Shown here one piece after another: positions 2,177-63,093 of a stretch of DNA of 64,000 nt. The notes below the pieces were generated by a model that saw nothing but the letters and a program-made list of their open reading frames with translations, had not been told where the DNA came from and made no database searches. The DNA is from Labilithrix sp. (lineage in GTDB: Bacteria > Myxococcota_A > Polyangia > Polyangiales > Polyangiaceae). Both the position numbers and the translations under genes were made by a program. Where the stretch lies: the NCBI GenBank assembly GCA_044227045.1, contig JBGAFW010000002.1:67457-131456 (forward strand). The letters are read 5' to 3'. Within the stretch, counting starts at the first letter, position 1, and each line of letters begins with the position of its first letter.

Positions 2177-3352
2177 ATGGAACGCATTCAGAAGATCCTC
2201 GCGCACGGCGGCATCGCGTCACGTCGCGCCGCCGAGCAGCTCATCAAAGCGGGTCGCGTGCGCGTGAACGGGCGCGTCGTGACGGAGCTCGGCACCAAGG
2301 CGGATCCTCGTCGCGACCGTGTCGAGGTCGATGGCAAGCGCGTCGTCGCGGAGGACCCGGTCTATGTCGTGCTCCACAAGCCGCGCGGCGTCGTCTCGAC
2401 GATGAACGATCCGGAAGGTCGTCCGACGGTGCAGGAGCTCCTCTCGAGCATCGGCGCACGCGTGTATCCGGTTGGCCGGCTCGATTTTGCGACGAGCGGC
2501 GTCCTCCTCGCGACGAACGACGGCGAGCTCGCCGACGGTCTCCTTCACCCGCGAAAGACCGTGCCGAAGAAGTACGTGCTCAAGGTGAAGGGCATCATGA
2601 GCCCCGAGGACATCGACGCGTGGCGCAAAGGCATCCGCCTCGAAGACGGCATGACGCTGCCGGCAGAGGCGACGCTCATCCGTCACGAAGGTGACAAGAC
2701 GTGGCTCGAGCTGACGATCCGTGAAGGTCGCAACCAGCAGATCCGCCGCATGGGCGAGGCGACGGGCTTTCCGGTCATGCGCCTCGCGCGCGTGTCGTTC
2801 GCCGAGATCTCGGTCGAAGGTCTCGCGCCCGGCCGCTGGCGGCATCTCACGCGCGACGAGCTCATCGATCTGAAGAAGACGTACGGCGTGCCGCGATCGA
2901 TCCCGTCGGCTGGGTCGATCCCGGAGAACCCTTCACGCGCGGCACGCGCACGCGCGATTCAGCCACGCAGCGCCGCGGAGTCGACCGCGGCGAGCTCTTC
3001 TTCTTCTTCGCCGCGCTTTGGCGGCGGATCGCCGGGACGCCGCTCCTACGACGTCACCGACGATTGGGGCGGAGGCGCAGGCCGCGGCTCCACGCGAAAC
3101 GATCGCGCGGGCTCCAGCGGCTCGAGCACCGGCGATCGTCGAGGCGCGAGCCGGAGCAGCGGTGGACGCAGCGGAAGCAGCGATCGCGGCGCGCCGCGCG
3201 CGAGCCGAGGCGGCGCCGTGGGAGGCAGCGAGGAACGTCCGCGCAGCAGCGTCGGCGGCGGTCGCTTTGGTCAATCACGCACGACCGGAACCGGCGGTGG
3301 GATCGGCTCGCGCGAAGAGGCCCCGCGCGTCAAAGGGCGCCGCGGACGCTAG
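2177..3352 (+). CDS. rluB: 23S rRNA pseudouridine synthase RluB, with a long Arg/Gly/Ser-rich C-terminal tail
   Basis: An S4 domain (IASRRAAEQLIKAGRVRVNG). The RsuA/RluB core (LHKPRGVVSTMNDPEGRPTV, YPVGRLDFATSGVLLATNDGEL, GRNQQIRRM). ATG at 2177, in frame with the longer ORF 2096..3352. Confidence 0.85.
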   Translation: MERIQKILAHGGIASRRAAEQLIKAGRVRVNGRVVTELGTKADPRRDRVEVDGKRVVAEDPVYVVLHKPRGVVSTMNDPEGRPTVQELLSSIGARVYPVGRLDFATSGVLLATNDGELADGLLHPRKTVPKKYVLKVKGIMSPEDIDAWRKGIRLEDGMTLPAEATLIRHEGDKTWLELTIREGRNQQIRRMGEATGFPVMRLARVSFAEISVEGLAPGRWRHLTRDELIDLKKTYGVPRSIPSAGSIPENPSRAARARAIQPRSAAESTAASSSSSSPRFGGGSPGRRSYDVTDDWGGGAGRGSTRNDRAGSSGSSTGDRRGASRSSGGRSGSSDRGAPRASRGGAVGGSEERPRSSVGGGRFGQSRTTGTGGGIGSREEAPRVKGRRGR

Positions 3353-9821: not shown

Positions 9822-10646
9822 ATGCCGACCGATCGCGACGATTCGACCACGCATGAAGCGGAGCATCTCGAGGCGTTGCCCGAGGACGTGCTCACCCTCT
9901 TGGGGGAAGAGAAGCGAGCGCCGGTGCCCGAGCTCGCGGAGCCCGACAAGGCCGCGCTCTTCGCGGCGATCTCGACACGCCTCGGCTTCGTTCCGCCCGA
10001 TGGAGGAGGCGAGGGCGGCGGAAGCAGCGGGGGAGAAAGCGGAACGAGCACGGGTCTTGGCGGCGCCGGCACTGGGGTCTCCTCGGGCGGCGGGTTCGTC
10101 CTCGCGGGCGGTAAGGCCGCCGCGGCGTTGATCGCCACGCTCGCGATCGGTGTCGTGGCGGGCGTGGTGATCGATCGCCAGGTCGCCTCCTCGCCTGCGC
10201 CGTCGCCGATGGCCGTGAGCGCGGTGCCTGGGCCGTCACCGGTCGCGATCGAGCCGGCCGCGCCGAAGGTCGAAGACTCGGCGGGCGTTCCCGTCGGCGC
10301 GCTGCCTTCGGCGCCGCGGGTCAACGCGACCCAGGTCGTGCAGGCGCCGAGCGTGAGCCCGACGCCGTCGAGCCGGGGCCTCGCCGCCGAGCGTGCGCTC
10401 CTCGACGTCGCGCGCGGGGCGCTCGCGCGCGGCGAAGCGACCGAGGCGCTTCGGGCCGCGGACCGTCACGCGTCGGAGTACCCAAGCGGGGCGCTCGTCG
10501 AGGAGCGCGAGGCGATCGCGATCAAGGCGCTCGTCGCGCTTGGCCGCAACGACGAGGCGCGACGGCGGTTCAAGGAGATGGAGCGCCGCTTCCCCAACGG
10601 CCTGATGCTCCGCGCTGTGAAGAACGCCGTCGATCAGGCGCCCTGA
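9822..10646 (+). CDS. Putative anti-sigma factor (single-pass membrane, TPR-like C-terminus)
   Basis: Starts 3 nt after the sigma stop. Gly-rich linker, a TM segment (LIATLAIGVVAGVVI), then a C-terminal helical repeat domain. Confidence 0.55.
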   Translation: MPTDRDDSTTHEAEHLEALPEDVLTLLGEEKRAPVPELAEPDKAALFAAISTRLGFVPPDGGGEGGGSSGGESGTSTGLGGAGTGVSSGGGFVLAGGKAAAALIATLAIGVVAGVVIDRQVASSPAPSPMAVSAVPGPSPVAIEPAAPKVEDSAGVPVGALPSAPRVNATQVVQAPSVSPTPSSRGLAAERALLDVARGALARGEATEALRAADRHASEYPSGALVEEREAIAIKALVALGRNDEARRRFKEMERRFPNGLMLRAVKNAVDQAP

Positions 10647-10691
10647 AGCGCGTAACCCAGCGAAACACTTGGTGAGCAGGAACCCAAGCAC

Positions 10692-10828
10692 GCCCTTTCT
10701 GGGCGCCCAGGAAGTCCCTCGGCACGTTTCTGGGCGAGTCCTCGACTCCATTTCTGGCCTCGGCGCCGTTTCTGGGTGCGCAGGAAGTCCTCGGCGCCCT
10801 TTCTGGGCGCCCAGGAAGTCCCTCGTCG
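10692..10828. repeat. Array of about 5 imperfect direct copies of a roughly 30-bp unit; the core is a palindrome (TTTCTGGGCGCCCAGGAAGTCCCTCG)
   Basis: Read directly: 2 full copies, 1 near-full copy and 2 degenerate copies. The core CTGGGCGCCCAG is a perfect palindrome. Intergenic, between the anti-sigma gene and the lipoprotein gene. Confidence 0.65.
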
Positions 10829-10944
10829 CGGATTTCCGGTGGACAGCGCGGCGTTCCGCGTCATGGTCGGACAAAGTCGCGCGCAGGTGCGTTTTTCGAA
10901 ATGGACGGATCGGGTCACCGCCAAGGCAGAGCACGAGGATTCGC

Positions 10945-34678: not shown

Positions 34679-35709
34679 GATCTCTCGCGCGGACGCTCAC
34701 CCTCGCCGCTGTCTCCTCGTCTCTGATCCTCGGTAGCGGCGTCGTACACGCGCAGGACAAGGATCAAGACGCCGAGCGCCTCTTTCGTGAGGGGCAGAAG
34801 CTCATGGAAGAGCGGCGCTACGGCGACGCGTGCCCGAAGTTCGAGGCGGCGTACCGGAAGGATCAGCAGCTCGGCACGTTGCTGAACCTCGCCTACTGCC
34901 ACAAAGAGCAAGGCGCGACGTGGCAGGCGTGGCTCGAGTTCAAGGACGCCGAGATGAAGGCGACCGAGCTACGCCGGAGCGACCGCAAGGAGTTCGCGCG
35001 CCAGAGGATGACGGAGCTCGAGAAGGAGAAGGCGCTCACGCGTATGGTGATCGAGCCCACGACGAAGGTGGAGCTCACCGAGGTGCTCGTCGAAGACCGC
35101 CGCATCCCCGAGGCGGAGAAGAGCGTCCCGTTTGCGGTCGAGCCAGGTCGAGAGCGCAAGGTCACGTTCCGCGCGAAGGGCAAGAAGGACAAGGTCCACT
35201 TCGTCAGCGTGTCGAAGAGCGACAAGCCGATGAAGGTCGCCGTCCCGGACATGGTCGACGAAGAGAAGGCGCCGCCTCCTCCTGCTGTGGTTGATCCGCC
35301 GCCGCCGCCGCCGCCGACCCATCAAGACGTGCGTCCCGTCGAGCCGCCGAAAGAGAAGAGCGACGGCTCGACCCAACGGGTCCTCGCCTATGGCCTCGGC
35401 GGGCTCGCGGTGGTGGGCATCGCGGTCGGGACGGTCGAGGGCCTCGCCGTCATCAACAACCCTTGCTCGAATCAGACACCCGAAGAGAAGGCAGGCACGA
35501 AGCCGTCGCCTTGCACACCCGACGAGAAGTCGAAGGGCGACACCGCATCGCTCGTCGCGACGATCTCGTTCGCGGCTGGCGGCGCCGCGCTCGTGGGCGC
35601 CCTCATCTTGTATTTCACCGCTCCGAGCAGCGACGCGAAGACGGGCAAGGGCTTTCACGTCACGCCAGAGATGGGTGTCGGTTGGGCCGGATTTCGCGGC
35701 GCGTTCTGA
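34675..35709 (+). CDS. Kinase-coupled signal-TPR-beta-domain-TM protein (paralog of the 23663 and 44343 proteins)
   Basis: Its ATG overlaps the kinase stop (ATGA). Signal peptide MRSLARTLTLAAVSSSLILGSGVVHA. TPR-like block (LLNLAYCHKEQGATWQAWLEF). A P(8) run. C-terminal TM segment. Confidence 0.65.
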   Translation: MRSLARTLTLAAVSSSLILGSGVVHAQDKDQDAERLFREGQKLMEERRYGDACPKFEAAYRKDQQLGTLLNLAYCHKEQGATWQAWLEFKDAEMKATELRRSDRKEFARQRMTELEKEKALTRMVIEPTTKVELTEVLVEDRRIPEAEKSVPFAVEPGRERKVTFRAKGKKDKVHFVSVSKSDKPMKVAVPDMVDEEKAPPPPAVVDPPPPPPPTHQDVRPVEPPKEKSDGSTQRVLAYGLGGLAVVGIAVGTVEGLAVINNPCSNQTPEEKAGTKPSPCTPDEKSKGDTASLVATISFAAGGAALVGALILYFTAPSSDAKTGKGFHVTPEMGVGWAGFRGAF

Positions 35710-35855
35710 TCGGTCGTATGCGCGGGGTTTGGGGCGGAGCCCCAACGTGAAGCATACGACGCGTGAGCGAGTCTTCGAGCGAAGGGGGATCCGTTTGCGC
35801 GGAGCGCAAATCGGTCGTATGCGCGGGGTTTGGGGCGGAGCCCCAATGTGAAGAA
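35690..35855. repeat. Intergenic hairpin-repeat element, locus 1 (about 1.5 tandem units), abutting the hisZ start
   Basis: The units contain TTTGCGC-GGAG-CGCAAA and GTCGTATGC-GCGGGGTTTGGGGC-GGAG-CCCCAA-YGTGAAGCATACGAC. The same family recurs at 51456..51666. Confidence 0.7.
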
Positions 35856-35856
35856 C

Positions 35857-37077
35857 ATGCTCGAACATCCGCTGCCGCCCGGAATGCGCGACCTCCTGCC
35901 CGAAGAGGCCAAGGAGCGACGGGATCTCTCACGCGCGATCCTCGAACGCTTCGCGCTTCACGGCTACCGGCTCGTCACGCCGCCCGCCTTCGAGCTCGCG
36001 AGCGTGCTCGAGCGTGGCCTTGGCGCGTCGTCGGTCACCGACGACGTCATTCGCTTCATCGAGCCCGAGTCGGGCGAGGTCGTCGTGCTTCGGCCCGACA
36101 TGACGCCTCAGATCGCGCGCATGGTCGCGACGCGCCTCTTCGATCGCCCGCCGCCGTTTCGGCTCGCCTACGAAGGCACCGTCATCCGCCGGCGCGCGTC
36201 GCGCGCGAAGAAGCAGAAGCAGATCCCGCAGGTCGGCGTCGAGCTCTGCGGCGTCGCGGGCGCGGAGGGAGACCTCGAGCTGCTCCGCCTCGCCGCCGAG
36301 GTCTTGCGTGACGCCGGCCTCGACGCCTTCATCCTCGACATCGGAGACGCCGGGATCGTCCGCGGGTTGCTCGAAGGCGTCGCGCCCGATCACGCGATGA
36401 GCATCTCGGCGGCGCTCGCGAAGAAGGACGAGGCATCGCTCGAAGAGCTGTGCCGCTCGCTCGACGAAGCGCTGGCCCATCGCGTGATGGCGCTGTCGCG
36501 CCTTCATGGCGGTCGCGACGCGCTCACGAGCGCGATCGAGCTGCTCTCGGGGACGAACGCCGAGCCGCCCGCGCGAAGGCTGCTCGCGCTCTTCGACGCG
36601 GCGACCGCGAGCGGTCTTGGCGACGTGCTCACGGCCGACCCCGGCGAGGTGCGCGGCCTGTCGTATTACACGGGCACGATCTTCTCCATCTACGCCGAAG
36701 GATCGGGCGATCCGCTCGGAGGTGGAGGTCGCTACGACGATCTGCTCGCGCGCTACGGCTCGCCGCAGCCCGCGATCGGCCTCGGGCTCGATCTCGACGC
36801 GCTCGCTCGCGCGATCCGCGCCGCGAAGGAGGCTCGCACGCGCTCGCAAGCGCCGCCGGAGACGCCTGCGAGCGTCGTCGTGGTCGGACCGAGCAGCGAT
36901 CCACGACTGGGCGAGCTGCGCAAGCGCGGCGTCATGGCGATCGCGATCGAAGACGCCGAAAAAGCGAAGGCTCACGCGAAGGCATGGGGTTTTGGCGTCG
37001 TGTGGACAGATTCTTCGACGTGGTCGTCGACCGACGAGGTCGTGGCCATGCTAAGAACGCCGCGTTCCAGACCGTGA
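35857..37077 (+). CDS. hisZ: ATP phosphoribosyltransferase regulatory subunit HisZ (HisRS paralog)
   Basis: Class-II aaRS core with the HisZ-type LRPDMTPQIAR motif and GGRYDDL. Directly upstream of purA, which is the classical arrangement. Confidence 0.75.
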   Translation: MLEHPLPPGMRDLLPEEAKERRDLSRAILERFALHGYRLVTPPAFELASVLERGLGASSVTDDVIRFIEPESGEVVVLRPDMTPQIARMVATRLFDRPPPFRLAYEGTVIRRRASRAKKQKQIPQVGVELCGVAGAEGDLELLRLAAEVLRDAGLDAFILDIGDAGIVRGLLEGVAPDHAMSISAALAKKDEASLEELCRSLDEALAHRVMALSRLHGGRDALTSAIELLSGTNAEPPARRLLALFDAATASGLGDVLTADPGEVRGLSYYTGTIFSIYAEGSGDPLGGGGRYDDLLARYGSPQPAIGLGLDLDALARAIRAAKEARTRSQAPPETPASVVVVGPSSDPRLGELRKRGVMAIAIEDAEKAKAHAKAWGFGVVWTDSSTWSSTDEVVAMLRTPRSRP

Positions 37078-48086: not shown

Positions 48087-48749
48087 ATGAGCATTCGCGC
48101 GCTCGAGACACTGAAAGAGAAATTCGGCGAGGCCATCCTCGAGACGCACTCCGAGTACGGCGATGACACCGCTGTGGTCGAGGCGTCTCGCTGGAAGGAG
48201 ATCTGCCGCTTCCTCCGCGACGACTCGCGGATGGCGTTCGACATGCCGGTCGACCTCTGCGGCGTCGACTACCCGGAGCGCACGCCGCGCTTCGAGGTCG
48301 TCCTTCACCTCTACTCGGTGAGCAAGCGCCAGCGCCTTCGTTTGAAGGCACGCGTCGGCGACGCCGAGGGTGAGTCGGCCGAGATCGACACCGTCTGTGA
48401 CGTGTGGGTCGGCGTGAACTGGTACGAGCGCGAGACCTACGATCTGATGGGGATCAGCTTCAAAGGTCACCCCGATCTCCGCCGCATCCTCATGTACCCC
48501 GAGTTCGAAGGGCACCCGCTCCGCAAGGACTACCCCGCGAACAAGGCGCAGCCGCTCGTCCCGTACCGCACGGAGGAGGAGGCCGGCCTTCCGCTCGGCA
48601 AGCTCGACCCGTTCCACGCGGACGAGGGCATGTCGTTCGGTCGCAAGCAATACGAAGGTCGCGAGCTCCACGAGACGCTCGCCGGCCAATCCGCGAAGAC
48701 CAGCACGTCTTCGTGGAATGGGCGAAGCCCCAAGGAAGGTGACAACTAA
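48087..48749 (+). CDS. nuoC: NADH-quinone oxidoreductase subunit C (30 kDa)
   Basis: NuoC core (DLCGVDYPE, VNWYERETYDLMGISFKGHPDLRRIL). Confidence 0.9.
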   Translation: MSIRALETLKEKFGEAILETHSEYGDDTAVVEASRWKEICRFLRDDSRMAFDMPVDLCGVDYPERTPRFEVVLHLYSVSKRQRLRLKARVGDAEGESAEIDTVCDVWVGVNWYERETYDLMGISFKGHPDLRRILMYPEFEGHPLRKDYPANKAQPLVPYRTEEEAGLPLGKLDPFHADEGMSFGRKQYEGRELHETLAGQSAKTSTSSWNGRSPKEGDN

Positions 48750-49963
48750 TGGAGCCCATCGATCTCGATCTCGACGACGACGAGCTCGAGCTCCCTGCGG
48801 AGCCGATGCATCTCAACATGGGCCCGTCGCACCCCGCGATGCACGGCACCGTGCGTATCGTCCTCGAGCTCTCCGGCGAGACGATCGTGAAGAGCGACGT
48901 GCAGATCGGCTACTTGCATCGCGGCTTCGAGAAGATGTGCGAGCGCGGGACCTGGGCGCAGGTCTTCCCGTACGTCGATCGCTTGAACTACGTCTCGCCG
49001 ATGCTCAACAACGTGGGCTACGCGCTCGCGGTCGAGAAGCTCTGCGAGATCGAGGTGCCCGAGCGCTGCAAGTGGTACCGCATGATCTTGGGCGAGCTCG
49101 CCCGCATCTCCGATCACCTCACGTGCAACGGCGCGATGGCGATGGAGCTCGGCGCGTTCACGCCGTTCCTCTGGTACATCAAGGCGCGCGAGATGGTGTG
49201 GGACATCCTCGAAGAGGAGACCGGCGCCCGCCTCACGCACTCGTTCGGACGCATCGGCGGCATGGCCAACCCGCCCACGCCCGCGCTGAAGGAGATGTGC
49301 CGCGAAGCCATCCCGGCGATCTTGAAGCTCGTCGAAGAAGGCGAGGGGATGCTCCTCAAGAACCGCATCTTCATCGACCGCCTCGAGAACATCGGGAACA
49401 TCTCGCAAGAAGACGCGATCGCGCTCTCGTGGACGGGCCCGTGCCTTCGCTCCACCGGCTGCGCCTACGACGTCCGCAAGGCGCACCCGTACCTCAAGTA
49501 CGACGAAGTCGACTTCGACGTCCCGGTCGGCACGAAGGGCGACAACCTCGATCGCTTCCTCTGCCGCCTCGCGGAGCTCCGTCAGAGCTGCAAGATCATC
49601 TTGCAGTGCTGCGAGCGCATGGCCGACGAAGGCCCGGTGAACGTCGATGACCCGCGCGTCATCTACCCGCCGAAGCAGGACGTCTACACGACGATCGAAG
49701 CCACGATCCAGCACTTCAAGCTCGTGATGGAGGGCGCGAAGGTCCCGAAGGGCGAGGTCTACTCCTACACCGAGGGCGGTAACGGCGAGCTCGGCTTCTA
49801 TCTCGTGTCGGATGGCACGGGGACGCCCGCGCGCGTGCGTATCCGCCCGCCGTGCTTCCCGATTACGTCGGGGCTCTCGATGCTGATCAACGGCGCCATG
49901 CTGAGCGACATCGTCCCCACGTTCGGGTCGCTCAACATGATCGGCGGCGAGTGCGATCACTGA
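48749..49963 (+). CDS. nuoD: NADH-quinone oxidoreductase subunit D (49 kDa)
   Basis: MHLNMGPSHPAMHGTVRI, GYLHRGFEKMCE, and the C-terminal RIRPPCF. Start by TAATG overlap. Confidence 0.95.
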   Translation: MEPIDLDLDDDELELPAEPMHLNMGPSHPAMHGTVRIVLELSGETIVKSDVQIGYLHRGFEKMCERGTWAQVFPYVDRLNYVSPMLNNVGYALAVEKLCEIEVPERCKWYRMILGELARISDHLTCNGAMAMELGAFTPFLWYIKAREMVWDILEEETGARLTHSFGRIGGMANPPTPALKEMCREAIPAILKLVEEGEGMLLKNRIFIDRLENIGNISQEDAIALSWTGPCLRSTGCAYDVRKAHPYLKYDEVDFDVPVGTKGDNLDRFLCRLAELRQSCKIILQCCERMADEGPVNVDDPRVIYPPKQDVYTTIEATIQHFKLVMEGAKVPKGEVYSYTEGGNGELGFYLVSDGTGTPARVRIRPPCFPITSGLSMLINGAMLSDIVPTFGSLNMIGGECDH

Positions 49964-50033
49964 GGCGATCCTCTCGCTTCTCGATCTCTCACTCCTCGTG
50001 TGACACCCGACGGTGACGCGGTACGCTGGGCGG

Positions 50034-51395
50034 ATGGCTCTTCCGCCCGGTCCGCGCACGCCGATGATCTGGCAGACGGTACGGTTCGTCATGCAACCGA
50101 GGTCGTACGCGTCCTCGATGCGCCAACACTTCGGCGACGCCGTCAGCTTTCACACGGCGCTCGGCAAGGGCATGGCTGTCTTCGAGGCTTCGCTCGCGCG
50201 AGAGGTCTTCGCCGCGCCTCCCGACACGTTCGAGACGATCGAGTCGGTGGGGGCGATCTTCGGTGAGCGCGCGGTCATCGCGACGTCCGGCGTGCTCCAC
50301 AAGAAGCAGCGAAAGATCCTGAATCCTCCGTTCCACGGGGCGCGGATCAAGGCGCTGCTCGGCACGATCCAGCGCGTCGTGAAGCGGCACGTCGACGCGC
50401 TCACAAAACCGCTCCGCGTCGGCGACGTCGTCAAGATGACGGACATCACGCAAGCGATGACGCTCGACGTGATCCTCGAGACCGTGTTCGGCTCGAACGC
50501 CGACGACGGTCGCCTCGATCGAGGTCGCGAGGTGCTCATCGGCATCACCCACGGCTTCAACCCCGCGATCATCACGACGAAGCGGCTTCACAAGCCGTGG
50601 TTCCCGCCGTGGCGCAAATACCTCGGGGTGCGCGCGGAGTTCGACGCGTGGGTGATGTCGCTCGTCGACGAGCGACGCAAGCAGGGTGACCTGGGCGAGG
50701 ACCTGCTCGGCCTCTTCTTGTCGACGCGCTACGACGACGGCGCCCCGATGAGCGACGCGGAGATCAAGGACCACCTCATCACGCTGCTCCTCGCGGGGCA
50801 CGAGACGAGCGCGATCGCGATCGCATGGGCGGTCTACTGGATGCTTCGCGAGCCGTCCGTCCTCACGCGTGTGCGCAAGGAGGTCGCCGCGCTCGGGCCC
50901 GCATGCACGGCCGAGCAGCTCGCGCGCCTCCCGTATCTGCAGGCGGTCGCCTCGGAGTCGCTTCGGATCGAGCCGGTCGTCACGGACGTCGTCCGCCGCT
51001 GCCGATCTCCGCTCACGATCCGCGACTGGACGGTGCCTGCGGGCGATCACATCGCGGTGATGATCGGATCGATCTTGAACGACGAGCGCGTCTTCCCAAA
51101 ACCGAACGAGTTCAAGCCCGAGAGATTTCTCGATCGCAGCTACCACGCAGGCGAGTTCCTTCCGTTCGGCGGCGGCCAGCGCCGTTGCCTCGGTGCGGCG
51201 TTCGCCGAGGCCGAGCTCGCGATCGCGATCGCCACGATCGCGTGCGACCTCGAGCTCGAGCTCGCCGAGCCGAGCTACGTCGAGCGATCGGTCCGCCGCA
51301 ACATCACGATGGGTCCCTCGCATGGCGTCCGCGTGCGTGTGCTCGGCGCTCGCCCAGCCGTCCACGAGACGACACGCATCGCCGCCGCATCCTGA
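50034..51395 (+). CDS. Cytochrome P450
   Basis: I-helix AGHETS. ESLR (ExxR). Haem loop FGGGQRRCLGAAFA. Begins 70 nt after nuoD on the same strand. Confidence 0.85.
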   Translation: MALPPGPRTPMIWQTVRFVMQPRSYASSMRQHFGDAVSFHTALGKGMAVFEASLAREVFAAPPDTFETIESVGAIFGERAVIATSGVLHKKQRKILNPPFHGARIKALLGTIQRVVKRHVDALTKPLRVGDVVKMTDITQAMTLDVILETVFGSNADDGRLDRGREVLIGITHGFNPAIITTKRLHKPWFPPWRKYLGVRAEFDAWVMSLVDERRKQGDLGEDLLGLFLSTRYDDGAPMSDAEIKDHLITLLLAGHETSAIAIAWAVYWMLREPSVLTRVRKEVAALGPACTAEQLARLPYLQAVASESLRIEPVVTDVVRRCRSPLTIRDWTVPAGDHIAVMIGSILNDERVFPKPNEFKPERFLDRSYHAGEFLPFGGGQRRCLGAAFAEAELAIAIATIACDLELELAEPSYVERSVRRNITMGPSHGVRVRVLGARPAVHETTRIAAAS

Positions 51396-51455
51396 ATCGG
51401 AGCGACCCGGCCGTTCGGTCCAACCCGTCGGATCCACCTCGCGCGTCCGCCGAGG

Positions 51456-51666
51456 AAGCATGCGACCCCTGAGCGAGTCTTCGAGCGAAGGGGGATCCGT
51501 TTGCGCGGAGCGCAAATCGGTCGCATGCGCGGGGTTTGGGGCGGAGCCCCATGTTGAGCGTGAAGCATGCGACCCCTGAGCGAGTCTTCGAGCGAAGGGG
51601 GATCCGTTTGCGCGGAGCGCAAATCGGTCGCATGCGCGGGGTTTGGGGCAGAGCCCCAACGTGAAG
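51456..51666. repeat. Intergenic hairpin-repeat element, locus 2 (about 2 tandem units of roughly 105 bp)
   Basis: Same family as locus 1. The outer stem is GTCGCATGC/GCATGCGAC here versus GTCGTATGC/GCATACGAC at locus 1, a compensatory change. The GGAG-looped hairpins are conserved. Confidence 0.7.
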
Positions 51667-51761
51667 AGCTTGCCCGACGCGCGAGAGGCGACTACACACG
51701 GCAGCACGAACCGGTAACGGGGAGCTGGTAGAAACGCCGCGCCTGCAAAACGCGGAGAGTC

Positions 51762-52406
51762 GTGTCCGAGAATCGTCGCGAGACGGAGTCCGAGTGGTTG
51801 GTATACCGAGTCGATGGGCCACCGATGGGGCCTATGACGACGTCGGCTGTGGCGGAGGCCATCCTGACGGGCAGGCTGCCGCCCGACGTGTGGATCGCCG
51901 CGCCGACCGCGATGCGGTGGCTCCGCGCGATCGACGTCCCGGTGATCGCATCGCTCGCGTTCGCCGAGCCGACGCGCCGTCCACGTGAGTCGGGCATGCA
52001 ACGCGTGCCCGCGCCGCCTGGCGTCGGGATCCCACCGCTCAAGCCGCCACCGCCGCCGCCGCGCAAGCTCGACGCGACGGTGAAGAGCGCCGGCACGCCC
52101 GCCGAGCCACCAAGCCTTGGGTCGCCGCCCACGCCCGTCACCGTCGACAGCAAAGACGCGCTCTTTGGCCCCGTCACCGATCGCGACTCCGAGCCTGCGC
52201 CGACGGTCCGATCGACGAACCCGCGCGGACCTGACGGCTTTCCGATCCCGACACCCACGCCGACCCCGACGCCCACGCCCACGCCGCCTCGGCCGATCTA
52301 CCGTGGCGGAGAGACGCTCGAGTCACCCGGTCAGGACCGCGGCCGCGAGGAGGGCGAAGGTGGAAGCAGCGGAGAGGTGCCGCGGAAGAAGATGCTCGCG
52401 TCGTGA
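51762..52406 (+). CDS. Hypothetical protein with an N-terminal GYF-like (DUF4339-like) domain and a Pro-rich tail carrying (TP)6
   Basis: EWLVYRVDGPPMGPMTTSAVAEAILTGRLPPDVWIAAPTAMRWLRAIDV. GTG start. Confidence 0.45.
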   Translation: MSENRRETESEWLVYRVDGPPMGPMTTSAVAEAILTGRLPPDVWIAAPTAMRWLRAIDVPVIASLAFAEPTRRPRESGMQRVPAPPGVGIPPLKPPPPPPRKLDATVKSAGTPAEPPSLGSPPTPVTVDSKDALFGPVTDRDSEPAPTVRSTNPRGPDGFPIPTPTPTPTPTPTPPRPIYRGGETLESPGQDRGREEGEGGSSGEVPRKKMLAS

Positions 52407-52437
52407 GGGCGATCGCACAGAAGCGCGCAGTCGTGAC

Positions 52438-53241
52438 TCAGTGAAAGGCGCTGCACACGACGCTGAGGACGAGCAGGCCCACGATCACGCCGACCGACCC
52501 GACGCGGCGAACGAACGGTGATGGCGTAGGCAGCCGCTTTCCGGTGAGCACCGAGAAGAGCATCGGCGACGCCGCGAGGACGTGAACGCCGTTCAAGACC
52601 GAGAAGAAGCCGCGCAGCTCGCCGTCCACGTGCACGATGCCGAGCGTCACGATGACGAACATGAGCGCGGAAGTCGCGACCGTGACGAGCGCGCCCCACA
52701 GCGCGACGCGGTAGAGGCCAAGAAACCCGATCAGGTACGCGACGCCGGAGAAGGCCATCAAGAGGCCCAAGCCCGCCGAGTCGCCACGACCGACGAGCGC
52801 GACGACGGCGAAGAGCAAAAACGTCTGCGCGTCGGCGAGCGCGAACACCATCAAGAGCAGCAGCGAGCTACGAAACGCAGCGGGCGCGTACGCGTCGGTC
52901 TCCGTCGCCTCGGCGAGCCCGTCCCTGCCGATCGCGAGCAGCGCGACACCGCACGTGCACGCGAGCTCGACGCCGCCCGTTCGCTCGCGACCGTTTCCAA
53001 CGACGGTGAGCACGACGCCGAGCGCGAGGTTCGACCACCACACCGCGCGCGCGAGGAGCTGCGGCCCGAGCTTCGTGACATGGACCGTGAACGCGGCGAC
53101 GACCAAGAGCGAGAGCGGAACGCCGAGGATCCACCAATCCGACGGGGCGGTCTGCGCGAGCGCGGCGAGCGCGCCAAGGCTGAGCGCGCTCGCGACGAGG
53201 CGTCGAGCGAGCCGCGCAGGGTTCATGAGCACCGTGCTCAT
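52438..53241 (-). CDS. Integral membrane protein (about 8 TM), hypothetical
   Basis: Internal ATG (MSTVLMNPARL), coupled by ATGA to the upstream zinc-ribbon gene. Multiple hydrophobic helices. Confidence 0.55.
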   Translation of the reverse strand: MSTVLMNPARLARRLVASALSLGALAALAQTAPSDWWILGVPLSLLVVAAFTVHVTKLGPQLLARAVWWSNLALGVVLTVVGNGRERTGGVELACTCGVALLAIGRDGLAEATETDAYAPAAFRSSLLLLMVFALADAQTFLLFAVVALVGRGDSAGLGLLMAFSGVAYLIGFLGLYRVALWGALVTVATSALMFVIVTLGIVHVDGELRGFFSVLNGVHVLAASPMLFSVLTGKRLPTPSPFVRRVGSVGVIVGLLVLSVVCSAFH

Positions 53242-53555
53242 CGAAACGGACCGTCCTTCGCGTTCGTCGTGTCGATCAACTTGATGCCTCGCGCTGGATC
53301 CGGGGTGAGGCCGCGGAAGCCATCGGCCCAGAGCTCCGAGTAGCCGCACCCATCGCAGAGGAAGAGGTCGAAGTGACCTTGCGGGCGGACGCGGCCCCAC
53401 TGCGCGCCGAGGACGCTCTTCGCGGCGGCTGGATCTGGCTGGTGCGGGACGACCGGAAGCTCGCGGCCGTCCGCGCTCTCACCCGGCACGCGGTACTTCT
53501 CGATCACCCAGATTCGCTTCGACGCACACTTCGGACAGCGGAGGAGGTTCTTCAT
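53238..53555 (-). CDS. Small zinc-ribbon protein
   Basis: MKNLLRCPKCAS...LFLCDGCGYSELW gives two CxxC pairs. The stop overlaps the downstream start (ATGA). Confidence 0.45.
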   Translation of the reverse strand: MKNLLRCPKCASKRIWVIEKYRVPGESADGRELPVVPHQPDPAAAKSVLGAQWGRVRPQGHFDLFLCDGCGYSELWADGFRGLTPDPARGIKLIDTTNAKDGPFR

Positions 53556-53829
53556 GACGATCCAGTCACGCTTCAGAGTAACGCACGTGGCGGATTGTTC
53601 CTGCACCTGCGCTCCTCTTTCGAACGCGCGAGATGGCCGGCATGTGCGCGAGCGTTGGTTGCGCCGCGATCCAAGCGCTCCCGGCGCGCAGATCCGGTGA
53701 GCATGTGAGCCTTGCGCAAGTCGCGCACGATCCGGACGACCTGGGTGGAACATTGTCTTCCCATGGTGAAACCGGTGCTCGTCCGACGGATCGCGCTTTG
53801 CACGGAGGGAGCGCGAAGGGAACGGTTGT

Positions 53830-54717
53830 ATGGTGCACAGAATTCTTCCATTCGCTGCGCTGCTGGTGGTCGCCGGTTGTGGCGTGAGCACTTCCGGAGG
53901 AATCGAGCCGCTCAGCGGAGACGACCCGACGGGCCAAACGCCCGCGAGCGGCGCGCCGAAGACCCCGGCGAGCAGCAGCTCGAACGGAAAGGCGCCAACT
54001 CCCATTCAAGACGTCCCGGCCTCGGAGATCCCGAGCGCGCCGCCTGCGAGCAACACCCCTGCGCAGCCGATGCCCACCGGCGAGCCTGCGACGGCGATCT
54101 CGCCATTTCATCCGAGCGGCAGTCTCACGTACCAGAGGCCGATCATCTGGACGATCAGCGCCTTCGACGAGATGACGCCCATCCATTACACGACGGACGG
54201 CAGCGCACCCGACTCGAGCTCGCAGACGGGGATCGGGAAGGTGACGCTCCAGAACCTCGCCGAAGGCACCCGCATTCGATGGGTGGCGGCGACGGGCTCG
54301 ACGATTCACGAGATGACGGTCCACGTCAACTCGTCGCTCGCGACCGAGACCCATCACATCGTCGAGAACGTTCGCTTCACCGCGTCCGGCGGACCCATCG
54401 TCCACGTGAAGCCCGGCGCGACCGTCGCGGGAAAGGCCGGCGCCGCGGTGTGGAACGGCCAGAGCAACTGCCCGACGTGCATCGATCAGATCACGCTTGG
54501 GATCTCCTCGGCGGCGACCTGCCTCGTGAGCGTTCAGCCCAACACGTTTCCTGGAAGCGCGGGCTCCGACGTGAGCTTCAGCATCAAGGCGCCGACCGCG
54601 CCAGGCGTCTACAAGATGCGGACCGGGTTCACGCAACAATACAAATGCGCGGACGCGATCGGCCAAGCGCTCCACGACACCGAGGTCGGTACGATCATCG
54701 TCGACGCGAACCCGTAA
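53830..54717 (+). CDS. Lipoprotein with a chitobiase/hexosaminidase-C-like beta domain
   Basis: Lipobox (LLVVAGCG). IHYTTDGSAPDSSS resembles a CHB_HEX_C-like motif. The antisense ORF 53566..55101 is Arg-rich junk. Confidence 0.6.
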   Translation: MVHRILPFAALLVVAGCGVSTSGGIEPLSGDDPTGQTPASGAPKTPASSSSNGKAPTPIQDVPASEIPSAPPASNTPAQPMPTGEPATAISPFHPSGSLTYQRPIIWTISAFDEMTPIHYTTDGSAPDSSSQTGIGKVTLQNLAEGTRIRWVAATGSTIHEMTVHVNSSLATETHHIVENVRFTASGGPIVHVKPGATVAGKAGAAVWNGQSNCPTCIDQITLGISSAATCLVSVQPNTFPGSAGSDVSFSIKAPTAPGVYKMRTGFTQQYKCADAIGQALHDTEVGTIIVDANP

Positions 54718-62223: not shown

Positions 62224-62937
62224 ATGACGAGCGCCGATCTCACGGGACGTATTGGCGGCTACAAGGGCGTGGCGATCCGTTGTCCGGGTTGCGGCGAGCC
62301 GATGCGCCAACACAACCTCGAGGAGGCGAAGGCGGAGGTCGACGTCTGCGACGCGTGCGGCGGCATGTGGGTCGACTGGTTCGACGGCGAGGTCCGCGTG
62401 ATCGCGACGGAGACCTTGCGCACGAGCGATCCCGGCCCAGCGCCTGCAGCAGCCACCACAGCCACCACGGCCACGACCACGACCACGACCACGACCACCG
62501 TCGCCGCGCCTTCGTCGAAGGACGAAGGCCGCCCGTCCCGCAACGAGGCCGTCGCGATCGGCGCGTGTCCACGCTGTCATGCGCGCCAGCTCGTCGCGGA
62601 GCGCTACGAGGTGAAAGCGGAGGTCGCGAGCGCCCGCATCGAAGACCGGACTTCGATCGTCGCAGGAAAGACGGGCGCCGAGCTCCTCCGATGCGAGGAC
62701 TGCATGGGCTCGTTCGTCTCGCGATCGAGCGCGGAGGTCCTCTCGTGGCTCTCGTCGCACCATGACGAGCCGCCGCCGCAAAGCCAGGCGCGCCCCGACG
62801 CGACGAAGGCGCTCAAGCCCGTACCGTGGGATCGCTTCGTGGCCCTCATGAAAGGCCTGCTAGGCCTTCGCAAAGAGGGCGCAGCGAAGGCTGAAGCGAA
62901 GCCCGAAGCGAAGAAGCCCGCAGCCAAGCCAACGTGA
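62224..62937 (+). CDS. Double zinc-ribbon (zf-TFIIB-like) protein with a poly-Thr run and a Lys/Ala/Pro tail
   Basis: CPGCGEPM...CDACGGMWVDWFD and CPRCHARQL...CEDCMGSFV. The run TTATTATTTTTTTTT comes from (ACS)n at about 62452-62500. Confidence 0.6.
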   Translation: MTSADLTGRIGGYKGVAIRCPGCGEPMRQHNLEEAKAEVDVCDACGGMWVDWFDGEVRVIATETLRTSDPGPAPAAATTATTATTTTTTTTTVAAPSSKDEGRPSRNEAVAIGACPRCHARQLVAERYEVKAEVASARIEDRTSIVAGKTGAELLRCEDCMGSFVSRSSAEVLSWLSSHHDEPPPQSQARPDATKALKPVPWDRFVALMKGLLGLRKEGAAKAEAKPEAKKPAAKPT

Positions 62938-63093
62938 CCCGCACTCAACGTGACCCGCACCGCGATGCCCGAAGCGAAGCCAACGTGACCCGCACTGCGA
63001 TGCCCGAAGCGAAGCCAACGTGACCCGCACCGCGATGCCCGAAGCGAAGCCAACGTGACCCGCACCGCGATGCCCGAAGCGAAGCCAACGTGC
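62927..63093. repeat. Perfect 35-bp tandem repeat, about 4.5 copies (GATGCCCGAAGCGAAGCCAACGTGACCCGCACYGC)
   Basis: The period of 35 was verified at 62964, 62999, 63034 and 63069. Each unit carries ATGCCCGAAGCGAAGCCAACGTGA (M-P-E-A-K-P-T-stop). The last unit has TGA changed to TGC and reads through into the VOC gene. Confidence 0.85.

Follow-up and report, generated by a model that had tools for sequence, protein, structure and literature searches.

What is the repeated hairpin sequence that lies in the gap between a cytochrome P450 gene, placed directly after nuoABCD in a Labilithrix genome, and the next gene downstream? A sequence-only reading of the 64-kb stretch of DNA analysed here (hereafter, the window) had suggested that it may act as a transcription terminator or insulator and that it may also mark an insertion or recombination junction. 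We examined the structure of the array, its surroundings in relatives and the distribution of its core hairpin among bacteria, viruses and plasmids. The array is probably a non-coding tandem composite hairpin repeat, one locus of a small family that is dispersed in this Labilithrix-like genome and acts like a mobile intergenic mosaic of the REP/BIME type.

Structure of the repeat

The array (locus 2) was delimited by Tandem Repeats Finder at 51455-51658 (period 107, 1.9 copies, 98% matches, score 401), with similarity between its units extending up to 51666 (...CCCCAACGTGAAG), and it is flanked by the P450 stop codon on the left (TGA, 51393-51395) and by the GTG at 51762 of a GYF_2-like gene on the right. 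It contains an exact 88-nt duplicate (51455-51542 = 51562-51649; shuffle expectation 0), so that the two tandem units described between the P450 stop and the next gene are indeed there. Unit 1 (51455..51561, + strand, 107 nt) consists of GAAG, the inverted-repeat arm IR-R, a B module, the arm IR-L and an A module, and unit 2 (51562..51666, + strand, 105 nt) terminates in ...GCCCCAACGTGAAG; the two are 99% identical and differ by a short indel/substitution patch after the first A hairpin (CCCCATGTTGAGCGTGAAG vs CCCCAACGTGAAG) and at one loop base (GGA vs AGA). The second locus that the sequence-only reading had implied by its numbering proved to be an array of the same repeat 15.7 kb away (locus 1, 35710..35853, + strand, in the order A, B, A, with A cores at 35724-35743 and 35825-35844), which shares 96% identity with locus 2 across 97 nt.

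The repeat unit is an alternation of the two modules, delimited by a 9-nt inverted repeat. Module A (GC-GGGGT-TTGGGGC-(GGA/AGA)-GCCCCAA-yGTGAA) combines a 5′ GGGGT tag with the hairpin TTGGGGC-RGA-GCCCCAA; its core in locus 2 (GGGGTTTGGGGC-GGA-GCCCC; tag plus a 7-bp hairpin, counting the following AA) lies at 51531..51550, with a second copy, loop AGA, at 51638..51657 (both + strand). Module B (...GAGCGAGTCTTCGAGCGAAGGGGGATCCG-TTTGCGC-GGA-GCGCAAA-TCG) carries the hairpin TTTGCGC-GGA-GCGCAAA at 51500..51516 and again at 51607-51623 (+ strand; DNA fold -9.2 kcal/mol, z = -3.7). The arms IR-R (GCATGCGAC; 51458..51466 and 51565-51573) and IR-L (GTCGCATGC; 51520..51528 and 51627-51635), all on the + strand and located from sequence and folds, pair with each other in the predicted folds, in which either A or B can be closed into a long stem. 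The 48-nt IR-A-IR and 71-nt IR-B-IR segments folded far more strongly than shuffled sequences, as DNA or RNA and on both strands, with z-scores of the modules from -3.4 to -5.4 (the exception being the locus-1 B module as DNA, z = -2.6). Between the loci the arms (GCATGCGAC/GTCGCATGC in locus 2, GCATACGAC/GTCGTATGC in locus 1) differ by one compensatory change that keeps the pairing, a single event. Locus 1 runs A-B-A and locus 2 B-A-B-A, the unit starting in a different phase; both arrays end in ...GCCCCAAyGTGAAG, and the four A cores of the window are all on the + strand, in direct orientation, with none alternating.

Both arrays are extragenic, situated between open reading frames (ORFs). 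The two ORFs that cross locus 2 (51275..51622 and 51304..51822), dismissed as spurious in the earlier reading, are present on the minus strand and match no Pfam family; a protein-coding reading of the array was rejected on that ground. Given the lack of a Pfam match for these crossing ORFs, the indels between units and the lack of an Rfam family, the repeat is non-coding. Covariance models gave no gathering-level Rfam match in the window or in 34 motif-bearing loci (the sole match at the E-value threshold was a spurious lncRNA, E = 3), and a known RNA family was discarded as a candidate. So was a CRISPR array, the intervening B segments being themselves repeated (96-100% identical) and not unique spacers. 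Among the papers of the library searched with 12-15-mers of either strand, none contained them in a bacterial context, and the composite B+A unit had 0 matches in JGI metagenomes. Among viral contigs the B core had 0 matches and the B hairpin occurred at 2 loci, both coding-looking and unrelated by eye.

The idea of a canonical terminator fared poorly at this level. The GC-rich stem-loop of an intrinsic terminator is present, but the T-tract directly after the stem is missing from every hairpin at either locus (the stems are followed by CGTGAAG, ATGTTGAG or TCGGTCG), and a consensus scan of both loci found 0 terminator-like sites and no promoter-like site.

The repeat and its junctions in relatives

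In the window, nuoA, nuoC and nuoD stand 5′ of the P450 gene, nuoD (48749..49963, + strand) being the final gene of the nuoABCD block, and the P450 gene (50034..51395, + strand, PF00067; its ORF spans 50013..51395, with the likely true start at ATG 50034) is a lineage-specific insert after nuoD. Matches to NuoD were 87-98% identical, and all named ones were from Labilithrix. Five relatives (L199-L202 and L. luteola, L203; NuoD 87-94%) carry nuoABCD followed by GYF_2-like and/or MatE genes and later by nuoG-H-I; the same split nuo cluster in all five means that the split is ancestral. The GYF_2-like gene of the window (51762..52406, + strand) is the orthologue of the gene directly after nuoD in L199/L200. 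Neither the P450 gene nor the repeat follows nuoABCD in any of the five. Two closer relatives do have the P450 gene directly after nuoD: in one (L198; NuoD 98% identical) the contig ends inside it, and in the other (L208; P450 97% identical) the repeat begins 50 nt past the stop, after the window's 60-nt spacer minus a 10-nt deletion. The L208 contig then ends inside a repeat unit, at ...GCGCAAA, as is typical of assembly breaks at multi-copy sequence; the repeat is repetitive enough to have broken this relative's assembly. In the relatives, ~140 kb of DNA contained no copy of the repeat, P450 homologues at a greater distance (68-69% identity) stand in unrelated contexts without it, and a search of JGI metagenomes for the P450 3′ end in a close relative gave a single distant match only.

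The comparison of orthologous nuoD loci proposed in the sequence-only reading thus separates five relatives without either feature from two closer ones with the P450 gene, one of which also has the repeat. The array itself occupies the distal end of the P450-containing extra segment in the nuoD-nuoG gap, and ancestral spacer homology resumes 3′ of it: over the final ~21 nt ahead of the GYF_2 start, homology with the spacer of the relatives is clear and statistically supported, and MAFFT aligned an 8/8 match (GCTTGCCC), not statistically secured, immediately 3′ of the array. On both counts the suggestion of an insertion or recombination junction stands. The companion claim that the P450 gene looks acquired is upheld by synteny but not by composition, which gave no signal of horizontal transfer (GC 0.65-0.70, as in the neighbouring genes). 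Further along the same gap, 52400-54700 contains two long ORFs without a Pfam match, between the GYF_2-like gene and MatE, and MatE follows GYF_2 directly in L199/L200, so that a further lineage-specific indel lies in the nuoD-nuoG gap.

Locus 1 provides an empty site. It extends from the upstream stop codon (TGA, 35707-35709) all the way to a point 3 nt before the ATG of hisZ (35857..37077, + strand; ATP phosphoribosyltransferase regulatory subunit), which lies immediately 3′ of it. In two relatives with HisZ 97% identical (L204 and L205), the stretch that corresponds to the 147-nt A-B-A array is an operon-like spacer of 47 nt, and both flanks of the locus align with theirs base for base. As judged from this alignment, an empty site in 97%-identical relatives shows that the repeat family has been gained or lost very recently. 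Filled and empty sites revealed no target-site duplication, and the native 47-nt spacer has been replaced in what was not a clean insertion. In the aligned sequences the event looks like a replacement, for which recombination or gene conversion could be responsible in place of transposition. The native 3′ junction (AAGCATGC) is similar to the repeat's inverted-repeat arm (GAAGCATGC), which hints, from two junctions only, at microhomology or target preference. A derivation of module B from the native hisZ spacer was also considered and rejected, local alignment being no better than with shuffled sequences. Since an operon-like gap has been filled here and close relatives do without the repeat, strong termination or an essential regulatory role is unlikely for the locus-1 element on this comparison.

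Other tandem repeats occur in this DNA and in relatives. A 27-nt tandem repeat (GCTAGACGCGGCTCTCGTCGCTCGGCC) after nuoD is expanded in one Labilithrix metagenome-assembled genome (MAG; L202:11290-11394) and single in its sister (L201:11216-11313); tandem expansion in the post-nuoD spacer is, on these sequences, recurrent in the lineage. In the window, an unrelated tandem hairpin repeat (10690-10830; ~31-nt unit, CCTCGGCGCCCTTTCTGGGCGCCCAGGAAGT; hairpin GGCGCCC-TTTCT-GGGCGCC) starts ~45 nt past the stop of the ORF at 9822-10646, and a 35-nt tandem repeat (62946-63092; 4.2 copies, 98% identity) runs from the stop codon of a Zn_ribbon_TFIIB gene (62224-62937), re-using the gene's last codons and TGA as its unit.

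The A hairpin in other bacteria

When one genome per species was scanned for GGGGTTTGGGGCNGAGCCCC, at least 120 loci were recovered, in Acetobacteraceae, Clostridia, Rhodobacteraceae, Streptomyces, Planctomycetota, Chlamydiae, Bacteroidales, Acidobacteriota and others. The 20-mer core (GGGGTTTGGGGC-RGA-GCCCC) is unchanged in very distant bacteria, in single-stranded DNA (ssDNA) phages and in mobilisable plasmids. Chromosomal copies stand mostly at gene 3′ ends: among the matches listed, the upstream neighbour was on the same strand as the motif more often than not (46 vs 16), the downstream neighbour tended to be on the opposite strand (45 vs 24), and only 4 gene contexts were divergent. No gene family recurred beside the motif among the 120 loci listed, and 18 of these 120 matches lay 150 nt or less from a contig end. 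In IMG/VR, the motif with a free loop was found on 63 viral contigs, against 5 and 0 for two composition-matched hairpin controls, and a GGGG-N tag precedes ~70% of the TTGGGGC-NGN-GCCCCAA hairpins in viral contigs.

Across 175 distinct contexts, the base before the tag was C in 158 and the loop was most often AGA (104), followed by GGA (54) and AGC (11). In 39% of these contexts (0.9% in shuffles) the motif comes directly after a perfect hairpin of 6 bp or more, compared with 4% in which such a hairpin follows it. The companion hairpins have 60 different stem sequences with a GGGGT/GGrTT head, and the motif with its upstream partner is, by comparison of these sequences, a "double hairpin" whose first stem covaries strongly. 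The mismatch spectrum of the companion hairpins was tried as a means of telling RNA-level from DNA-level structure and did not discriminate between them (G.T 9 vs A.C 3; not significant, p = 0.15). Further sequences precede the motif in some groups: a conserved TGGCC-N-AAAGCGAYAAAT-NCC at loci of Acidobacteriota and Planctomycetota (L022, L048, L053, L004/L008, L086), CTGGyC-N-AAATAyyCC in Rhodobacteraceae (L015, L033, L039, L061, L068, L076, L112, L114, L115) and a similar AAAGCGTTAAACCTC in the phage group that carries the hairpin in a Rep gene leader.

In other genomes A hairpins are arranged in tandem (periods 45-190 nt) or inverted; in a Ruminococcus MAG (L095), for example, an inverted second double hairpin with the variant core GGGAGTTTGAGGGCAGCGCCCTCA lies ~110 nt upstream of the motif (in minus-strand orientation), a REPIN-like doublet. 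Two Eubacteriales MAGs share a homologous ~163-nt element that contains a first hairpin and the A hairpin (L002, minus strand, ~2750-3000; L011, minus strand, ~1570-1820). It has imperfect terminal inverted repeats (CAGGYTGCYGAC... / ...CAACGGTCTG) and is flanked by a 25-nt or a 24-26-nt direct duplication of the host gene's terminator hairpin, a hairpin whose sequence differs between the two genomes. The element thus sits between the terminator hairpin of its host and the T-run, which is found only after the right copy; it is unusual for a target duplication to be as large as a hairpin. These two genomes give direct evidence for movement of A-carrying elements, and the tandem and inverted arrangements and the matches near contig ends also speak for mobility. 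In the window, queries for IS110, Rep and MobV proteins found no transposase, and tblastn of the window and the fetched loci with approximate IS200 TnpA and E. coli RAYT queries gave no match.

Single-stranded DNA phages and rolling-circle replicons

The 63 viral contigs include 9 from microviruses, 3 from inoviruses and 15 with a rolling-circle Rep gene downstream of the motif, 27 of the 63 in all. On the microvirus contigs, where major head, pilot and replication-initiation proteins are present, the motif lies 9-24 nt past the stop of the gene preceding the pilot gene; on the 15 Rep contigs it lies 25-45 nt upstream of the Rep gene (PF23343). In GenBank, the motif was found in non-coding DNA of the inovirus Dulem virus 50 and of a microvirus. 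MobV (Mob_Pre) plasmids or modules of E. coli, Vibrio, Photobacterium and Providencia carry it on the mobV strand, ~190 nt upstream of mobV and ~70-100 nt 5′ of a putative pMV158-like oriT. Among 13 ssDNA phages, 12 carry the motif on the gene-coding strand, which in these phage families is the strand that is packaged. The packaged strand is also the transcribed strand, so strand choice cannot separate a role in DNA from one in RNA.

In the contig with the hairpin at L140:3657-3705 and in 14 similar IMG/VR contigs, the A hairpin stands in the leader of the rolling-circle Rep gene (PF23343, phrog_3584), between AACCTC and GGAGGTT, whose pairing could sequester the Shine-Dalgarno sequence. IS110-family transposases (PF01548 + PF02371) are encoded in the motif-carrying inoviruses Dulem virus 50 (L128:2248-3163) and L173:281-1033, a combination that suggests, by analogy, integration into hairpin repeats.

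A more tentative reading joins these occurrences. The A module with its GGGrT-tagged covarying hairpin may be an undescribed cross-phylum element with one conserved function or mode of mobilisation on single-stranded nucleic acid, of the form C-GGGG-N-TTGGGGC-RGM-GCCCCAA and often paired with the second, freely covarying GGGrT-tagged hairpin. Such an element would span microviruses, inoviruses, rolling-circle Rep elements, MobV oriT regions, terminator-targeting MITEs and chromosomal REP-like arrays, with the array in Labilithrix as one of its local expansions.

Weighing the explanations

Could the hairpins stop or strongly attenuate nuoABCD-P450 transcription ahead of the GYF_2-like gene, as a terminator or insulator? 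The array is in the 3′ region of a same-strand gene, its predicted stems are very stable, A-type hairpins elsewhere occur preferentially at gene 3′ ends and between convergent genes, and stem-loops without a U-tract have been reported at transcript 3′ ends that arise from Rho-dependent termination and exonuclease trimming (PMC13613805). We nevertheless regard this as unlikely, with no T-run after any stem and 0 consensus sites, and with locus 1 filling the stop-to-hisZ gap where relatives keep a short operon-like spacer without the repeat, a position at which a strong terminator would be hard to tolerate. Terminator stems, moreover, drift freely, so that identical 20-mers across phyla would be unexpected, and 15 viral contigs have the hairpin in the 5′ leader of a Rep gene. 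A lesser function, as a stable stem-loop at the 3′ end, is conceivable. The folds, the compensatory change between loci and a unit of ~100 nt, a size typical of sRNAs, would also suit a structured small RNA or cis-regulatory RNA gene that has been duplicated in tandem. That prospect is very slight: there is no Rfam match and no promoter-like site at either locus, both strands fold equally well, the orthologous site of the 97% relatives lacks the repeat, and locus 1, with its different phase, is flush with a stop codon and 3 nt from a start codon, leaving no room for a promoter or terminator.

Equally hard to credit is a local tandem duplication without any wider family, the cross-phylum 20-mer matches being coincidental. 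Other unrelated intergenic tandem repeats do occur just past stop codons in this genome and in relatives, but here the same modules recur in another phase 15.7 kb away, the 20-mer keeps its preceding C and following AA in at least 120 genome loci and 63 viral contigs, composition-matched hairpin controls hit only 5 and 0 viral contigs, and the tag accompanies ~70% of the viral hairpins of this type. A signal acting on ssDNA is a somewhat better candidate, still an improbable one: in that case the A hairpin would work as a site of priming or as something akin to a single-strand origin, or would offer an HUH or IS110-type enzyme a hairpin for recognition or attachment. That the chromosomal arrays are such sites or their relics, and the locus an integration hotspot, is likewise improbable. 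The 27 of 63 viral contigs from microviruses, inoviruses or Rep carriers, the gene-coding strand in 12 of 13 ssDNA phages, the position near the putative oriT of MobV plasmids, the transposases of Dulem virus 50 and L173, and the indel junctions marked by the window array all point this way, as do GGA loops closed by C-G, which we take to be GNA-type DNA triloops. Against it, the strand that carries the motif in ssDNA phages is also the one transcribed, AGA rather than GNA is the most frequent loop, a wobble-tolerant strand-specific structure (G.T 9 vs A.C 3, p = 0.15) fits RNA as well as ssDNA, and no gene for such an enzyme was found near the chromosomal copies.

We therefore return to a recently mobile intergenic mosaic as the probable identity of the array. 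Two loci with four A hairpins are visible in the 64-kb window, and a high genome copy number (>100 per genome in REPs) is an extrapolation from them and, indirectly, from the relative's contig that ends in the repeat. The spread of the repeat would take place at the DNA level, probably by way of single-strand hairpins together with an enzyme supplied in trans, or through recombination between copies. After its arrival it would be transcribed as the 3′ tail of nuoABCD-P450, where its stems may act at most as a 3′-end barrier to exonucleases, a stabiliser or a partial pause, a role that agrees with the reported U-less stem-loops at processed 3′ ends (PMC13613805). Repeat copies would supply homology for rearrangements, which would explain why the repeat is found at junctions.

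The array offers an explanation for a lineage-specific rearrangement of the respiratory nuo region, and it counsels caution: ORFs that cross the repeat should not be annotated, nor a terminator assumed there. It is of practical interest as well, as a hairpin repeat that breaks metagenome assemblies. What was not expected is that the hairpin crosses phyla and is enriched among ssDNA and rolling-circle replicons, an exact 20-base hairpin being common to Labilithrix, Clostridia, Acetobacteraceae, Chlamydiae, Planctomycetes, Streptomyces, microviruses, inoviruses and MobV plasmids, which is abnormal for REPs or terminators. If a common host factor or mobilising enzyme lies behind this, the hairpin would provide a handle on the conversion of ssDNA replicons to double strands across hosts or, alternatively, on a very broad class of non-autonomous mobile DNA.

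Comparison with known systems

The closest resemblance is to the REP/BIME sequences of Proteobacteria, which are mobilised by RAYT/TnpA_REP. Like them, the Labilithrix repeat is extragenic and GC-rich, has a conserved 5′ tag ahead of a short hairpin whose loop measures 3-5 nt, clusters into mosaics with conserved linkers, stands at gene 3′ ends and between convergent genes, and varies in presence or absence among close relatives; REPs are also known hotspots for IS insertion and rearrangement. To our knowledge, REPs are species- or genus-specific, whereas here the same 20-mer extends across many phyla, phages and plasmids. The 4 of 4 A hairpins are direct, while REPs alternate in orientation, and no RAYT was seen in the window or fetched loci (with approximate queries). 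The tag, too, is GGGGT (or GGGG-N) rather than the GTAG/GTGG of the REP consensus (PMC2817692). Given this tag, the direct hairpins and the absence of a visible RAYT, the repeat falls, by its sequence features, outside the REP/RAYT family as defined.

MITEs are similarly small, non-coding, structured and intergenic, and the ~163-nt A-carrying element of the two Eubacteriales MAGs, bounded by terminal inverted repeats, behaves in a MITE-like way. The window arrays, by contrast, lack a target-site duplication and replaced a native spacer, start in different phases of the unit, and have 9-nt inverted repeats that flank each module and not the whole array.

In Neisseria, dRS3/NIME repeats are the integration sites of filamentous phages with IS110-like (Piv/MooV) transposases. 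The likeness lies in a short hairpin-type chromosomal repeat that marks rearrangement junctions and in inoviruses that carry both a repeat copy and an IS110-family transposase (Dulem virus 50 and L173). The sequences are unrelated, however, no integration event was observed here, and the A motif also occurs in microviruses and MobV plasmids without such a transposase.

The ssoA/ssoU and ssi signals of rolling-circle plasmids and ssDNA phages are orientation-specific hairpins on the strand that exists as ssDNA, and the A motif resembles them in lying beside oriT/mob or in the intergenic regions of ssDNA phages. This likeness is one of position and strand only, no RS-B or CS-6 motifs having been identified, and multi-copy occurrence in chromosomes is foreign to sso elements. 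Finally, the GC clusters or double-hairpin elements of fungal mitochondria are GC-rich two-hairpin modules that invade intergenic DNA without encoding an enzyme. They belong to another domain of life and are unrelated in sequence, so the comparison is an analogy only; what the two have in common is a GC-rich two-hairpin module that has no enzyme of its own and can invade intergenic DNA even of AT-rich genomes, as with the A motif in phage contigs of 31-45% GC.
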